Shown piece after piece: positions 565-59,345 of a stretch of 64,000 bases of DNA. Under the pieces are notes generated by a model. The model was not told the origin of the DNA. It did no database searches and saw only the letters and a list, made by a program, of their open reading frames with translations. Position numbers and translations under genes: made by a program. The stretch spans positions 6,174 through 70,173 of the forward strand of contig JBIKNF010000009.1 of assembly GCA_044358835.1 (NCBI GenBank), given 5' to 3'. The first letter of the stretch is position 1, and every line of letters starts with the position of its first letter. The DNA is from Vampirovibrionales bacterium (GTDB taxonomy: Bacteria; Cyanobacteriota; Vampirovibrionia; Vampirovibrionales; JAJTHC01).

Positions 565-700
565 TTTTAAGAATGCGTAGAAAAAGTCTTTTTTGCCTTA
601 TCCCTTTTGCTTATGGAAGAAGGCTAGAAGGGGGGAAACACCAGCTATGACTGGACATCCAAGAACCCTCACCCCAACCCTTTTCCATAGGGAAAGGGAG
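565..700. repeat. Dispersed palindromic repeat family, locus A: reverse unit ~570..645 plus truncated forward unit 664..700, head-to-head
   Basis: The reverse complement of 605..645, 'ggtgtttccccccttctagccttcttccataagcaaaagg', matches 56287..56330. 664..700 'ccctcaccccaacccttttccatagggaaaggg' matches the same unit start in forward orientation. Confidence 0.65.
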
Positions 701-724
701 TAATCTCGGCACATTCTTGAATAC

Positions 725-3667: not shown

Positions 3668-3756
3668 GTCTATACTTTGTCGCTACGATTATTTTGTTCC
3701 GTTATGTACGTCTATGTACACGCCCTCACAAAATAATCTAGGCTCCTCGTCTAGCC
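3668..3756. repeat. Left arm of a ~90-bp imperfect inverted repeat flanking hicB
   Basis: The reverse complement of 4300..4395 aligns to 3668..3756 at ~85% identity with one 6-7-nt indel. Shared blocks include 'gtctat', 'ttgtcgctacgatt' and 'tacacgccctcacaaaa.aatctaggctcct'. Confidence 0.75.
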
Positions 3757-3796
3757 ACCTGTACAGAAAGCTCTAAAAAACGGCTATATGAAGCCA

Positions 3797-4231: not shown

Positions 4232-4299
4232 CTTTCATTTTTCTTAAAAACTGTCTCACATAAACATCCATAGTGTTCGTTAGATGAAACAGGCTATGA

Positions 4300-4395
4300 G
4301 GCTATTCTAGGAGCCTAGATTTTTTTGTGAGGGCGTGTAGTGAGACCTACATAACTAAACAAAAAAATCGTAGCGACAACGAAGAGACCATAGAC
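4300..4395. repeat. Right arm of the inverted repeat flanking hicB
   Basis: See the left arm. Lies in the hicA-hicB spacer and ends 5 nt before the hicA-like stop. Confidence 0.75.
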
Positions 4396-8085: not shown

Positions 8086-8370
8086 ATGGTTTTTACAATG
8101 CCTGTTCCTTCAAAAAAAAATCACTCCTTGCCTAATGGGGCTTCTACCCTAGCTGCACAAACGAAAGGCAGCCGCTGTAGCATTGTGCAATTGCTAAATC
8201 CTGAAGCGGAATTGACCTTGTTGCGTTTTGGTTTAGGCGTGGGAGACACCGTTTGCGTGCTTTCAAAAGTCCCCAACAAAGGCCCGCTGATTTTAGAAGC
8301 CCATGACATGGAGTTTGCCTTGGGCTATGACTATGCCTCCTCTATTCTTGTGGATGCAATCCGTGAATAA
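8086..8370 (+). CDS. feoA: Ferrous iron transport protein FeoA
   Basis: 94 aa with the SH3-like FeoA pattern 'SIVQLLNPEAELTLLRFGLGVGDTVCVLSKVP...ILE'. Directly precedes and overlaps feoB. Confidence 0.75.
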   Translation: MVFTMPVPSKKNHSLPNGASTLAAQTKGSRCSIVQLLNPEAELTLLRFGLGVGDTVCVLSKVPNKGPLILEAHDMEFALGYDYASSILVDAIRE

Positions 8371-10297
8371 ATCAAGCGAATCTCTGACTCATACCGAAGA
8401 GGATGCCTGCTGTAATGCCCCCGCTCCTGTAGAAGCGTCGTGTCGGCATGCCACCAGCGATGCCTTGCGTCAGTTGTATCTTCAAGCTGGGCAAAGCCTC
8501 TTGGAACTGAAGACTGTTGCTCTGGCGGGCAATCCCAACGTGGGCAAATCCGTGGTGTTTAATGCCTTAACGGGCATTTATGTGGATGTCTCCAACTTCC
8601 CCGGTACCACCGTAGGCATTGCCAAAGGCGCCTTAAAGGCCCACCCTCATATTGAAGTGCAAGACACCCCAGGGGTGTATGGGTTGTCTCGCTTGAGTGA
8701 AGAAGAATGCGTGGCAGAACAAGCGTTACTTTCGGTGGATGTGATTGTCAACATCGTCAATGCCGTGACGTTAGAACGCGATTTATTTTTAACCCAACAG
8801 TTGATTGATTATGGTTGCCCTTTGATTGTGGTCTTAAATCAAATGGATGAAGCCCAAGCCCGTGGAAGAAAAATTGATGTGTTGGCCCTTGAACAACAGT
8901 TGCAAGTGCCTGTGGTCACTTGTGTGGCGGTTCGTGGGGAAGGGATTTTAGAGATTGTGGAAGCCTTGCCTTACGCGAGCTATGGGCGTCGTACCCCTGA
9001 ACTGCCCTTGCCTTCAGATTTACTTAAAATTGAACATAACAAAGTCGAACAACTGCGGATTTACGGGCATCGGCGTTTGTACTTAAAAAGCTATGTGTCG
9101 CAAGTCACCTGTGCCGCAGGTTGTTGCGACACCCCCAAAACGCTTAATTTTCAAGCCTTTTCAAAAGCCTTGGGGAATGCTTTATTGCACCCTGTTGTCG
9201 GTGGGGTGAGCTTGGTTGTGGTGCTCATGGCCTTGTATCAAATCATCGGTGTGTGGATTGCGGGCGATGCCGTGGCCTTGCTAGAAGGCAAGCTCATGCT
9301 CGGGATCTTTGTGCCGTTTGTCGATTCCTTGGTGTCGAAGTTTTTTGCCCTTGGCACGCCCATTCATACCATACTGGCCGGTGAATTCGGTTTGCTGACG
9401 ATGACGCCCCGTTACCTGATTGGGGTGTTGGCTCCCTTGGTGATTGGCTTTAACTTGTATTTGTCTTTACTAGAAGACACGGGCTATTTACCGCGCTTGG
9501 CAGCCTTGAGTGACAGTGCCATGCGTCAAGTGGGCCTTAACGGACGCGCCATTATTCCCATGATTTTGGGCTTGGGTTGCGTGACCATGGCGGCCATTTC
9601 CACACGCGTCTTGAGTTCTCAACGCGAACGGACCATTGCCACCACGTTGCTTGCCATTACCATTCCCTGCTCGGCTCAACTGGGCTTAATTATGGGTATG
9701 ATGGCTTTGGCGGGGGGATTAAAAGGGTGGTTGCTTTACATTATTATTTTAACGGGCCTATTTATTGCCATTGGCTCTGTGCTGAATAAAATTATGCCGG
9801 GGACTTCAACAGGTTTAGTGATTGATCTGCCGCCCATGCGTTTGCCACGACTTAAAAACATCGCCAAAAAAACCTGGACGCGTTCATGGAGCTTTTTGGT
9901 AGAGGCGACCCCGTTGTTCATGCTAGGGGCTTTGCTGGTTTCTTTGGCGGAAATTACAGGCGCCTTAGCGTGGATTCAAAACGCCTTGGGTGGCGTCACC
10001 GAAACCTTGTTGCATTTGCCGAAAGAAGCGGCTTCGGCGTTTATTATGGGCATGGTGCGTCGGGATTTTGGCTTGGCGGGTTTTTATCAGTTAAAAAGCG
10101 TGCTGAGTCCGCTTCAAATGCTAACCAGTTTGGTGGTGATTACCTTGTTTGTGCCTTGTTTAGCGACTGCCACCGTGATGCTCAAAGAACGGGGTTGGCA
10201 AGAAGGGGTGGGCGTCTTTGTATTTTCGTGGGTGTTGGCGTTTGCCACTGGGGCGGTGGTGACTCGGGTGTTAGAGTTTCTTCCGTTTTGGTCTTAA
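8303..10297 (+). CDS. feoB: Ferrous iron transporter FeoB: G-domain plus membrane gate
   Basis: 'LKTVALAGNPNVGKSVVFNALTG' is the G1 motif, followed by a polytopic C-terminal domain. The start is uncertain. There is a ~70-aa Cys-containing leader, and alternative starts exist at 8354 or a TTG near 8497. Confidence 0.9.
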   Translation: MTWSLPWAMTMPPLFLWMQSVNKSSESLTHTEEDACCNAPAPVEASCRHATSDALRQLYLQAGQSLLELKTVALAGNPNVGKSVVFNALTGIYVDVSNFPGTTVGIAKGALKAHPHIEVQDTPGVYGLSRLSEEECVAEQALLSVDVIVNIVNAVTLERDLFLTQQLIDYGCPLIVVLNQMDEAQARGRKIDVLALEQQLQVPVVTCVAVRGEGILEIVEALPYASYGRRTPELPLPSDLLKIEHNKVEQLRIYGHRRLYLKSYVSQVTCAAGCCDTPKTLNFQAFSKALGNALLHPVVGGVSLVVVLMALYQIIGVWIAGDAVALLEGKLMLGIFVPFVDSLVSKFFALGTPIHTILAGEFGLLTMTPRYLIGVLAPLVIGFNLYLSLLEDTGYLPRLAALSDSAMRQVGLNGRAIIPMILGLGCVTMAAISTRVLSSQRERTIATTLLAITIPCSAQLGLIMGMMALAGGLKGWLLYIIILTGLFIAIGSVLNKIMPGTSTGLVIDLPPMRLPRLKNIAKKTWTRSWSFLVEATPLFMLGALLVSLAEITGALAWIQNALGGVTETLLHLPKEAASAFIMGMVRRDFGLAGFYQLKSVLSPLQMLTSLVVITLFVPCLATATVMLKERGWQEGVGVFVFSWVLAFATGAVVTRVLEFLPFWS

Positions 10298-10373
10298 TAC
10301 CAATTAAACGATTAAATGTCCCCCCAAAAAACATGGGGTCAACTCTTTGGGTTAAAGGTTCTGTGAATTGGCT

Positions 10374-40114: not shown

Positions 40115-40218
40115 TACCCATTAAACGGTATGAACACACTTTCTAAAATAGAAACCTTGACCTATGTGCTTGATTGGTTAGAATAAAGATTATCACCGTT
40201 GTGCGTGAGTTTATAGAT

Positions 40219-45406: not shown

Positions 45407-45567
45407 AACAGGGGGAGTCTTTCCTTTTTACATTATTATAAGCCTTCAGCGTCAAAACGGCCATAGAAAGCGCTGCGAAAGGGAGCTTTCTATAAAAAAA
45501 CCCCCGTGCTACCGAAGTATCACAGGGTTCTGGCTTTTCTCTCTAAGGTAAAATAAAAAAATAAAAC

Positions 45568-55909: not shown

Positions 55910-56285
55910 GGTTTTTCTATAGTGTTTGCTAGATAAAACGGTCTAGGGTCTTTTCGTTGCCGCGACGATTTTTTTTTGCTTGCTTATGGTCGTTTGTGTA
56001 CACACCCGCACAAAAAACCGAGGCGCTTAGAATAGCCTCATCGTCTGTTTCATCTTTCAAACACTATAAAAGGGGATAAAGAGGTAAAAATGGCCTAATT
56101 TCCGACACACAGAATACCCTTTTTTGACACACGAAAGTCTATTTTTTACTCGATTTTCAAGGAGTTTGCTGGGTTGTGAAGACCTGTTGAAAAAAGCCAA
56201 TCTTTTTTAGTACAACCTATTTTTAAGTCCTTTGCCCAGTGGCTAAACCCCACTATTTTTGGGATTTCTAGCTTCGTTTTGAGCG

Positions 56286-56362
56286 GGTGTTTCCCTCACC
56301 CTAGCCTTCTTCCATAGGGAAAAGCGACAAAGCAAAAGGACTTTTGCAGAACTTTTTATAAG
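56286..56362 (+). repeat. Dispersed palindromic repeat family, locus B: single forward unit
   Basis: 'ggtgtttccctcaccctagccttcttccatagggaaaagcgacaaagcaaaaggacttttgcagaactttttataag'. Contains the hairpin 'gcaaaag gac ttttgc'. Confidence 0.65.
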
Positions 56363-57256: not shown

Positions 57257-58735
57257 ATGCCCAAGTCCCCAAAGGGTTCTAAAACACCTGTGCATCACCC
57301 ATTTTGGTGGCCTTGGTTGCGTTTATTGAAGCAAGGCTACCGTCTACTGGCTTCCATGGAACTGGCGATTGTGTTATTGATTGCGTTGGCCGTTGCGTGC
57401 ATTATAGGGAGTTTGATGCCTCAAGAAACGCTCGTGAGTTTGGCGAACATTCAACGCCAATTTGGCGATGCCACGCCATACCTTAAAGCAATGGGCTTTT
57501 TTAATGTGTTTTACAGTCCGTGGTTTTTTAGTTTAGAAGCCCTGTTCTTTTTGTCGATCGTGTTGGGGTCTTTTCGTTGGTTGCGTCCGGCGTGGCGTTC
57601 AATTACGCTTAAAACACTCATGAATGCGACACATATTCAAAGTTGTTCAACGGGTCGTTCGCTTCGTCTTTCTCCTGCGGTGGCTCCGCCTGAAACCTTA
57701 GCCACTTTAACGTTGGCTTTAAAACAAGAAGGCTTTAGCCTGACCCCTTCAAACCCCAAACACCCATGGAGCCTGTACGCACAACGAGGCTGGCTTGGCC
57801 GTGTAGGCCCCATGATTACCCACTTAGGCATTGCCCTTACGCTTTTGGCCGCGTTGTACGGCGCCTTTAGTCAATTTACCGCCCAAGCCACGCTCAAGCC
57901 GAATGAATCCTTGTATTTAAGTGAAGCAGACTCCTTTCAAACGTCCATTAGTCCACCGTATTGGGTGGGGCGCATTCCTGAATGGAAGTTCAAGGTAATT
58001 GATTTTGAAATTGAGTTTCAATCCAAAGCCCCTTTAATCCCCAAGCAGTTTACGTCTACCTTGCAAATTTTAGATCCCCTCACGGGCGAAGTCTTGGCCG
58101 AAGGAAAAACATCTGTCAATCACCCTTTTGTGTATGACGGCGTGACGTTTTATCAGGCCCAATTTTCACCCACCACGTGGCATGACGTCCTCATCAATCA
58201 CGTCCCTTTACGACTAGATGCCTCTCAAACACTGGCGGGGCGTCCGTATGCGGTGCACCCTGTTGACGCTACCACGCGTTTGTTTATCTTTCCGCTTGGG
58301 CGTTTTACCGACGGCTTACCGCGTAATCGCTTGCATGTTTTGCTTGAACGTAACGGCGTGTTACAGGGGTATCAAAAAGGCTTTAGTGAAGCCAACAACA
58401 CGCTGGTTTCCCTTGCAGAAGGGGGTGCTGCCACGATGCTAGGGGGCCAAATTCTTCAATATAAAAAAGCGGTTATGGCCACAGGCTTGCAGATTAAATC
58501 CGCGCCGGAAACCCCCTTTTTATATGTGAGTCTTTTTATATTGGCCTTGGGCTGTGCATTGAGTTTTATACCACATTACCAGGTGTGGTTTGCCTTATAT
58601 TCTGAAGAAGGCGAAGGCAACTCCCCCCCCACAGAACTCTGGTATTACACCAAGTCCAAAAAGCGTGGCCACGCCCTAGAAGAGGCGTTGACCCGTTGCC
58701 TAGCCAAGATGCCTCGAGCCGTTCGAGACAGTTGA
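57257..58735 (+). CDS. ccs1: Cytochrome c biogenesis protein Ccs1/ResB (System II)
   Basis: N-terminal 'FWWPWLRLLKQGYRLLASMELAIVLLIALAVACIIGSLMPQ' is typical ResB. A large periplasmic domain and a C-terminal TM helix follow. 492 aa. Confidence 0.8.
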   Translation: MPKSPKGSKTPVHHPFWWPWLRLLKQGYRLLASMELAIVLLIALAVACIIGSLMPQETLVSLANIQRQFGDATPYLKAMGFFNVFYSPWFFSLEALFFLSIVLGSFRWLRPAWRSITLKTLMNATHIQSCSTGRSLRLSPAVAPPETLATLTLALKQEGFSLTPSNPKHPWSLYAQRGWLGRVGPMITHLGIALTLLAALYGAFSQFTAQATLKPNESLYLSEADSFQTSISPPYWVGRIPEWKFKVIDFEIEFQSKAPLIPKQFTSTLQILDPLTGEVLAEGKTSVNHPFVYDGVTFYQAQFSPTTWHDVLINHVPLRLDASQTLAGRPYAVHPVDATTRLFIFPLGRFTDGLPRNRLHVLLERNGVLQGYQKGFSEANNTLVSLAEGGAATMLGGQILQYKKAVMATGLQIKSAPETPFLYVSLFILALGCALSFIPHYQVWFALYSEEGEGNSPPTELWYYTKSKKRGHALEEALTRCLAKMPRAVRDS

Positions 58736-58796
58736 TAGTTCAATAGAGTGTTTTAAAGAGTTGCTCATTTTGGAGCGTAAACCCCGCGATTTTTGT

Positions 58797-58956
58797 TATA
58801 GAAGGCTCTGCGAAAGGGCGTTTTACTCCCTCTCCCTTAGGGAGAGGGTTGGGGTGAGGGATTCGGGATGCCCAATTATAGCTGGTGTCCCTCCTCCTAA
58901 CCTCCTCCCTAAGGGAGGAGGAACAAAGCAAAAAGACTTTCGCAGAGCCTTCTATA
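58797..58956. repeat. Dispersed palindromic repeat family, locus C: two units head-to-head
   Basis: Perfect 20-bp terminal inverted repeats: 'tatagaaggctctgcgaaag' at 58797..58816 and 'ctttcgcagagccttctata' at 58937..58956. Internal perfect palindromes at 58828..58848 ('ccctctccc tta gggagaggg') and 58901..58921 ('cctcctccc taa gggaggagg'). The core 'acaaagcaaaaagactttcgcagag' matches locus B. Confidence 0.75.
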
Positions 58957-59126
58957 GTATCCGATAGAGACTTTTCCCTCTATTCAGGGGGCTTCTGAAA
59001 AAATTAATCATTCCCTTTAGCAAAACGTGGTATACTCAATTTAGTTTAAAAGTTCAAGAAATACAGTTTCCCACCAAACAATCTCTTTCTACGTTTACCC
59101 CCCCCCCAGCTTCGGAGAACACTGCC

Positions 59127-59345
59127 ATGCATCCATTGCTTATTCCTTATTCATCCCACCCTCATAACACCTTTAGCCCAGTGACTGAATCAGCCCCTTT
59201 GAGCGAAAAACCCACGGTGCCTGAAAGTCTAAACAACCTAAGTAGTCAGGCTCGTAAAACAGGTGTGACTAATGTGTTTGATCGTTATAAACAGACGGTT
59301 TATGACACTTCGTTGTTTGTGGCGAGTGAGATTTTTTATAGCTAG
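59127..59345 (+). CDS. Small hypothetical ORF preceded by a C10 tract
   Basis: 72 aa. Weak. A C10 homopolymer at 59098..59107 lies 20 nt upstream. Confidence 0.25.
   Translation: MHPLLIPYSSHPHNTFSPVTESAPLSEKPTVPESLNNLSSQARKTGVTNVFDRYKQTVYDTSLFVASEIFYS

Follow-up and report, generated by a model that had tools for sequence, protein, structure and literature searches.

The 160-bp palindromic element that follows resB in the window (the whole stretch of 64,000 nucleotides of Vampirovibrionales DNA that was analysed) is very probably a non-coding MITE, whose ends and TATA target are also those of an IS of the IS5 family. The element is bounded by the inverted 20-mers TATAGAAGGCTCTGCGAAAG (58797–58816) and CTTTCGCAGAGCCTTCTATA (58937–58956), which are complementary at 20 of 20 positions, just as the first-pass annotation had described them. 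The gene upstream encodes ResB/Ccs1, as had also been proposed; the element begins 61 bp past its stop codon, and both neighbouring genes lie on the same strand. The parts of the element and its context gene are as follows, L-numbers here and below being labels of fetched loci.

57257–58735, plus strand: resB/ccs1, the context gene upstream of the element (PF05140 ResB; homologues annotated as cytochrome c biogenesis protein ResB).
58797–58956, no strand: complete 160-bp MITE of the hairpin-core subfamily A, running from TATA to TATA, with perfect 20-bp termini and a long-hairpin fold.
58797–58800, no strand: left TATA, the presumed copy of a duplicated target, from the family-wide TATA flanks, the nested insertion and the abutting pairs.
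58801–58816, plus strand: left 16-bp terminal inverted repeat GAAGGCTCTGCGAAAG, the putative transposase-binding end.
58828–58848, no strand: local hairpin CCCTCTCCC-TTA-GGGAGAGGG, whose stem is kept by compensatory changes across copies.
58901–58921, no strand: local hairpin CCTCCTCCC-TAA-GGGAGGAGG, the same module as in L111, L083 and L012.
58937–58952, minus strand: right 16-bp terminal inverted repeat, from the complementarity of the 20-mers and the terminus scan.
58953–58956, no strand: right TATA, the presumed second copy of the duplicated target, on the same basis as the left one.

The two palindromes with 9-bp stems and the G-rich stretch noted earlier are present in the core. A palindrome search reports the hairpins as 10-nt arms (58828–58837/58839–58848 and 58901–58910/58912–58921), and the stretch GGGGTGAGGG occupies 58851–58860. 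The two halves of the element show a further 78% complementarity over 40 nt, and a 176-nt region containing the whole element forms one long RNA hairpin with a folding energy of −98.5 kcal/mol (z = −8.9), as well as which none of 200 shuffles folds. The opposite strand folds with z = −9.6. Two ORFs run across the element, one on the minus strand (58740–58931) and one on the plus strand (58761–58967), encoding 63 and 68 aa. They overlap, consist wholly of repeat sequence and have no Pfam match at E ≤ 0.1, so that the earlier view of them as artefacts is reasonable, and the two spurious ORFs can be removed from the annotation. The element is small, well under 1 kb, and without coding capacity.

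With up to three mismatches allowed, the window contains the terminal 20-mer four times, against 0.03 occurrences expected by chance. Besides the complete element, the window contains three related features.

583–703, minus strand: old, decayed full-length copy of subfamily A, with both termini eroded, aligning to element positions 27–144.
45462–45494, no strand: 33-bp remnant, a single terminus with a shortened inverted partner (CATAGAAAGCGCTGCGAAAG-GG-AGCTTTCTATA).
56282–56360, plus strand: solo right arm of a subfamily-A element, aligning to element positions 84–160.

The related loci near 583 and 56282, to which the first-pass annotation had pointed, are real, with alignments far above those of shuffles. 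The copy at 583–703, which ends 22 bp upstream of an ATG at 725, matches the element at 96 of 116 positions (score 100 versus 15 ± 2 for shuffles), and the solo arm matches at 60 of 77 (score 62 versus 15 ± 2); the terminus of this arm, CTTTTGCAGAACTTTTTATA, has one mismatch to the degenerate pattern. Elements comparable to the 33-bp remnant, 43–52 bp in length, exist in L071, L042 and L037. Because the three copies in the window are only 78–83% alike, subfamily A may be old in this genome and possibly no longer mobile; in contrast, the subfamily-B arms in the JBILSS MAG are 97–100% identical.

A scan with the degenerate terminus CTTTYGCAGARCYTTYTATA over one genome per species, the kind of pattern search that had been recommended for counting copies, yields at least 110 stretches, and about 90 of those listed lie in six Vampirovibrionales MAGs. 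Two more listed stretches belong to a bin labelled Gammaproteobacteria, whose contigs are 82–89% identical to Vampirovibrionales DNA. About 17 chance matches are expected in the whole genome collection, as estimated from the degeneracy of the pattern and the size of the collection. The absence of further copies, together with chance-level alignment, had been named as the outcome that would speak against a repeat family; many copies were found, and the three loci align above chance. Within 768 kb of matched loci, 200 termini at up to three mismatches form 51 inverted pairs, 43–1336 bp apart, of which 49 are elements of 43–358 bp, and the two wider ones have no transposase between them. The 160-bp element of the window aligns end to end with copies of 160–162 bp in Vampirovibrionales MAGs (L111, L110, L083, L007 and others).

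The terminus, TATA followed by GAARGYTCTGCRAAAG, bounds at least four unrelated cores of 43–360 bp in six or more Vampirovibrionales MAGs, which can be sorted as follows.

Subfamily A, 137–181 bp: the hairpin core of the window copy.
Subfamily B, 150–207 bp: a core with GTGTACGTCTATGTACAC.
Subfamily C, 255–315 bp: a further core.
Subfamily D, about 140 bp: a core with CGCAATGAC.
Minimal elements, 43–52 bp: little beyond the two termini.

The first-pass annotation had taken the family to be made of polypyrimidine-TAA-polypurine hairpins, a definition that has to be given up, since these form the core of one subfamily only. What defines the family appears to be only the pair of 16-bp inverted repeats at the ends (GAARGYTCTGCRAAAG) with TATA beside each of them, and the hairpin-rich core appears as the cargo of one subfamily, unnecessary for membership. 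The copies are found in either orientation and in unrelated surroundings. The termini are intergenic and avoid genes: only 5 of 178 fall inside ORFs of at least 150 aa, though such ORFs cover 77% of the sequence.

In metagenome contigs, the same degenerate terminus gives 62 stretches, roughly a third of them with family context (a partner terminus, a known core or the IS), and most of the others, isolated single matches on low-GC contigs, are probably due to chance. The viral contigs gave one isolated match without a partner terminus, which was taken as chance. Furthermore, five loci (L042 7526–7663, L070 4510–4543, L008 91–205, L075 and L082) carry hairpins of 34–44 bp that consist of the family's termini and have the form TATAGAAAGCTCTGC-TTTT-GCAGAGCTTTCTATA; their hosts are Micavibrio-like and Rickettsiales-like alphaproteobacterial MAGs, with two or three hairpins per genome.

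Two further observations concern individual copies. In six copies of the subfamily-A hairpin, a 24-nt palindromic insert, CACGCCTCGCCGATGGCGGGCTAC, is located at one fixed position within the 3′ half, and may be either a marker of a sub-lineage or a still smaller nested element.

L049 7893, L077 3812 and L089 1953: copies with the insert.
L074 7383, L107 3936 and L159 169, minus strand: copies with the insert.

At L097 694–2029, two termini 1336 bp apart surround an ORF of 384 aa that contains an HExxH motif (HEFTH) and matches no Pfam family; this ORF could be cargo between two ends or could lie between two unrelated solo ends.

The target of the family is marked by TATA, found directly before 158 of 176 termini. 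One base further out, C is present in 54% of cases, compared with 23% in the background, and for this reason the preferred site seems to resemble C-TATA-G. The only clean comparison of a filled with an empty site comes from L032 4385–4534, where a 150-bp subfamily-B element is nested in a subfamily-C element of the 255-bp type. The empty homologues in L063, L013 and L051 read GGTC-TATA-GGGG, and L032 reads GGTC-TATA-[GAAGAC...GGTTTC]-TATA-GGGG, a net gain of the element and four bases (TATA). In addition, the overlap in each of the nine abutting element pairs is exactly 4 bp, TATA, as is expected when one element inserts into the TATA beside another already in place. No direct repeats outside TATA were seen at the family elements. 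These arrangements point to a net 4-bp duplication of TATA at the family level, which is equally compatible with staggers of 4, 2 and 0 nt, as TATA is a palindrome and the stagger length cannot be read from the sequence.

In the case of the copy after resB, for which a comparison of site occupancy across strains had been proposed earlier, the site is occupied and identical in all strain-level contigs, with independent assemblies from JGI, ENA, NCBI and Logan; an empty resB site was not found, the look-ups with the exact ResB and SecG proteins giving only identical loci. Pairwise comparison of orthologous MAG loci also gave no empty site, these loci being too diverged, and ResB relatives at 87%, 79% and 66% identity have a different gene downstream of resB.

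The transposase would have to be supplied from elsewhere. Neither the window nor any of the MAG loci showed an intact IS, and clustering of the ORFs of 110 genome loci gave only multi-copy pilin-like genes. The wide pairs in L086 (1267 bp) and L097 (1336 bp) enclose no transposase, and the ORFs adjoining solo termini are ordinary genes, with no transposase among them. Several metagenome-contig stretches have termini about 1.13 kb apart, and five IS copies were delimited on such contigs or by way of protein homologues.

L127 89–1217: termini and one 313-aa ORF.
L160 615–1743: termini and one 313-aa ORF.
L131 472–1605: termini and one 313-aa ORF.
L188 68–1198: termini and a 303-aa ORF, reached via protein homologues.
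L189 2–1144: termini and a 306-aa ORF, reached via protein homologues.

The IS is 1129–1143 bp long and contains a single transposase ORF of 303–313 aa, which matches the Pfam families DDE_Tnp_1 (5.7e-24) and DUF772 (8e-23), as well as the NCBIfam model NF033581, transpos_IS5_4, with 294 bits (cut-off 140, E 9e-88) over model positions 2–285 of 285. On every feature that could be tested, the IS falls within the IS5 group of the IS5 family. Both 20-bp termini of the IS in L189 are perfect and agree throughout with the MITE consensus, and the left end of the window element with its TATA agrees at 19 of 20 positions with the corresponding end of the 1129-bp IS in L127. The MITE cores share nothing with the IS beyond these 20 terminal bases, which lends no support to an origin of the MITEs from it by deletion. 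The IS is the likely autonomous partner of the MITEs, to judge from the ends and the target, and its transposase would move them in trans.

The IS copies in L127 and L160 and the partial one in L123 are 99.9–100% identical with different flanks, which suggests that the IS moved recently. Several contigs place it in Vampirovibrionales DNA, as judged by the similarity of the surrounding sequence: the DNA flanking the L127 IS is 91% identical to the Vampirovibrionales MAG locus L039, and L185 has a truncated IS whose neighbouring genes show 70–73% identity to JBIKTR loci. Remnants of IS ends exist in L043 (CANGYO) and in L094 (JBIKTR, the closest MAG to the window). Meanwhile, the IS in L131 and L188 abuts a MITE of subfamily A or B through a shared TATA. 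The intact copy is seen only on short metagenome contigs, and the transposase homologues are overwhelmingly on contigs of 1.1–1.5 kb; its absence from the MAGs is attributable to the breaking of short-read assemblies by repeats.

The proposed course of events is as follows. An IS5-group DDE transposase of the IS5 family, encoded elsewhere on the IS of 1.13–1.14 kb with matching ends, would bind the two ends of a MITE and then cut out or copy the element. The element would be inserted at TATA, often within C-TATA-G, and repair of a cut with a 4-nt stagger, a geometry presumed here, would leave TATA on each side. The copy after resB would be an old, fixed insertion. A resB transcript that reads through it would form a very stable RNA hairpin, with a possible effect on resB expression.

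IS5-group elements make 4-bp duplications in YTAR-type sites. The best annotated IS relatives of the partner among the listed matches, which come from the plasmid collection, are IS5-family transposases with 48–49% aa identity. The closest annotated relative found, IS1646 of Xanthomonas, has a transposase 48% identical to that of the partner IS over its full length, and its locus reads CTAG-GGAACCTCTGAACAACG ... CGTTGATCAGACCATCC-CTAG, where the flank is again a 4-bp palindrome. The family consensus end GAAAGCTCTGCAAAAG and the IS1646 end GGAACCTCTGAACAACG agree at 11 of 16 positions by manual count. The partner IS therefore resembles the IS5 group in its length of about 1.13 kb, its single DDE ORF and its ends of 16–17 bp homologous to those of IS1646, but its target is TATA, not CTAG or YTAR, and the window element is without a transposase and has only the 20 terminal bases in common with the IS. 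With at most 48–49% aa identity to the listed plasmid-borne relatives, the partner would count as a new IS by the usual convention.

Transposases 65% identical to that of the IS, on unrelated contigs, have ends of the form (T)ATA-GRACCCTCTGCRAAAG, and L192 is flanked by TATA and TATT. The ends and the TATA target therefore appear to characterise a broad IS5-group clade, which accounts for the presence of the terminus two or three times in Micavibrio-like MAGs. Transfer between predatory bacteria was considered as a source of those occurrences and set aside, as the same type of end and TATA-type flanks accompany the 65%-identical transposases on unrelated contigs.

Among known small elements, the closest resemblance is to the prokaryotic MITEs, such as Correia of Neisseria, ERIC and the cyanobacterial Nezha (PMC10969869, PMC11602168), which are likewise non-coding and intergenic, measure 100–300 bp and occur in many copies. 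The likeness extends to terminal inverted repeats, a short target duplication, a long hairpin, nested or tandem insertions and broken short-read assemblies. The differences lie in the termini, the target, the transposase family and the host lineage, and in the several unrelated cores that occur here under one pair of termini. The window element has the features by which a MITE would be recognised, namely its size, inverted repeats, a duplication seen at the family level, dispersed copies and ends in common with an IS. Tourist MITEs of the eukaryotic PIF/Harbinger group depend on a transposase superfamily related to IS5 and make a TAA/TTA duplication inside a longer palindromic target. The family resembles them in its apparent dependence on an IS5-like DDE enzyme and in a short, AT-only palindromic target within a wider palindrome (here C-TATA-G), but differs in its bacterial host, in a duplication of 4 bp rather than 3 bp, and in a partner with no second (Myb-like) ORF.

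Four other accounts of the palindrome were weighed. The first-pass annotation had offered REP/BIME-like and MITE-like as alternatives, and only the MITE-like half of that description holds. If the element were of the REP/BIME/REPIN type, it would be an extragenic palindrome spread by a RAYT, a tyrosine transposase like those of IS200/IS605, and put to use by the host as DNA or RNA structure. The element is indeed palindromic, intergenic and abundant, its local stems are kept by compensatory changes, and some copies amount to little beyond a hairpin of 34–52 bp. However, the unit is not a self-palindrome of 20–40 nt: the conserved 20-mer begins with TATAG, has no internal dyad and no GTAG/CTAC head, and the palindromy arises only from two inverted copies of it. 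This account is made highly improbable by the inverted repeats at the ends and the TATA duplicated beside them, by cores that reach 358 bp and far exceed REPs in size, and by the fact that the only transposase gene found bracketed by the repeats is a DDE enzyme of the IS5 type and not a Y1 enzyme. A MITE of the Correia or Stowaway type, moved by an IS630/Tc1-mariner transposase with duplication of TA, so that the element proper would begin with TAGAA, has an equally slim chance of being correct. Its size would be similar (~150 bp), with an intergenic position and a strong hairpin, and Correia elements end in TATAG..., like the element of the window. A TA duplication, however, predicts an empty site GGTC-TA-GGGG, where three homologues read GGTC-TATA-GGGG, and it predicts TATATA junctions, where 9 of 9 abutting pairs are joined by TATA; moreover, the IS with the family's ends encodes an IS5-family transposase and has no IS630/DDE_3 match.

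A structure selected by the host, such as a terminator, a 3′-UTR stabiliser, an RNase III site or a small RNA, with the repeat character as a secondary matter, would fit the very stable fold on both strands, the covarying local stems and the position of the element, 61 bp past the resB stop codon and on the strand of both neighbouring genes. Against it, no Rfam family reaches its gathering threshold in the window element (the best is mir-3151, a generic hairpin match with 28 bits versus 83), a promoter scan of the element gives no promoter-like site, the sole terminator-like match in it equals the number expected from shuffles, and the hairpin of the element is followed by no T-tract. The copies are, furthermore, in both orientations and unrelated contexts, and a structural role would come as a by-product of a MITE and would not compete with it as an origin; as an origin, it is very unlikely. 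Correia and ERIC elements have been reported to alter transcripts via RNase III or RNase E (review PMC10969869), and a transcript effect of this kind for the window element is speculation by analogy. A chance palindrome or an assembly artefact, for which nothing speaks beyond the metagenome-assembly origin of the sequence, has next to no probability, given the shuffles, the excess of termini in the window, the identical locus in independent assemblies and the many copies in other genomes.

The hairpin stems vary between copies with their pairing intact. The variants CCCTCTCCC/GGGAGAGGG, CCTCCTCCC/GGGAGGAGG, CCTTCTCCC/GGGAGAAGG and CCCTCCCCT/AGGGGAGGG all pair perfectly. Among 32 arms, a biased set as they were chosen for having the hairpin, four of nine stem pairs carry changes in both partners, with pairing in 99% of cells; the same three compensated stem pairs recur when 14 full copies are aligned without such selection. 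Such covariation may reflect selection on structure, hairpin-templated repair or a small number of founder variants, each of which could have been a perfect palindrome. An unlikely, though not negligible, extension is that the hairpins are modules selected for their structure, or kept palindromic by hairpin-templated repair, through which MITEs in UTRs are recruited for transcript stability or translation control. The compensation in three to four of nine stem pairs and the 24-nt palindrome at a fixed place in six copies are the grounds for this suggestion. The stems CCUCC and GGAGG resemble anti-Shine-Dalgarno and Shine-Dalgarno sequences.

The host of the window is a flagellated member of the Vampirovibrionales, as the window encodes flagellin, and not a photosynthetic cyanobacterium. 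The window is 93% identical over 3.2 kb to JBIKTR, a Lake Mendota MAG labelled Vampirovibrionales, and 81–86% identical to the Vampirovibrionales MAGs JBILSS and CANGYO. In the full-text literature, no paper combining Vampirovibrio with MITEs and no report of a Vampirovibrionales MITE was found, a search for the terminus as a string gave only unrelated primers, and a MITE survey of 183,232 genomes (PMC11602168) does not mention Vampirovibrionales. The family is accordingly a new MITE family of a well-known kind of element, real but ordinary, with its target site and its likely autonomous partner identified, in a lineage for which full-text searches, this survey included, gave no MITE report.

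The understanding of how MITEs work is unchanged by this finding. The Vampirovibrionales, predatory and non-photosynthetic relatives of cyanobacteria with few studied genomes, gain a defined mobile-element system, which comprises an IS5-group element with apparently recent activity, four or more MITE subfamilies with its ends, a TATA target and ends situated at gene-order breaks. The fragmentation of the MAGs of this lineage is also explained, as many termini fall at the ends of contigs and the IS is nearly confined to contigs of ~1.1–1.5 kb, and the termini may serve as strain markers in lake time-series metagenomes.

Gene-order breaks between close relatives fall at element ends (in the window at about 40328 and from 58735 onward), and at the 93%-identical JBIKTR locus (L094 3191–3245) the alignment stops exactly at the remnant of an IS end. 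The two contigs L012 and L028 (JBEISK010000053.1 and JBEISK010000026.1) of "Gammaproteobacteria bacterium Sample-107-S80-bin-40" carry MITEs of the family, and their identity is 82% to the window and 89% to a Vampirovibrionales MAG; by this similarity, the bin appears to be mislabelled or contaminated.

Other repeats are present in the same genomes. A second and more abundant MITE-like family has the termini ATACCAATTAAACGATTAAAT(AGCG...) and several different cores, with 71 matches at up to four mismatches in the fetched loci and a complete example at L018 2114–2330. In the window it is represented by a solo end at 10297–10317, directly after the stop of the ORF at 8303–10297, and by a partial copy at about 40117–40140. 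Inverted copies of a ~95-nt repeat (3668–3760 and 4290–4390 of the window) surround about 500 bp with a small minus-strand ORF; the same repeat forms L127 1–95 and matches about 15 other loci at roughly 75–97% identity. In addition, a multi-copy gene family with an N-terminal methylation motif (type IV pilin-like) shows 76–81% nucleotide identity within one MAG, and several of its members lie near MITEs.

L056 2896–3576: pilin-like family member.
L064 3224–4012: pilin-like family member.
L086 261–662: pilin-like family member.
L113 495–1154: pilin-like family member.

Downstream of the element, a run of 10 C at 59098–59107 lies ~20 nt upstream of the ATG at 59127. The run has 11 C in L114 and L115, one of only two differences in an alignment of ~400 bp, and this difference in length could be homopolymer slippage or a sequencing error.
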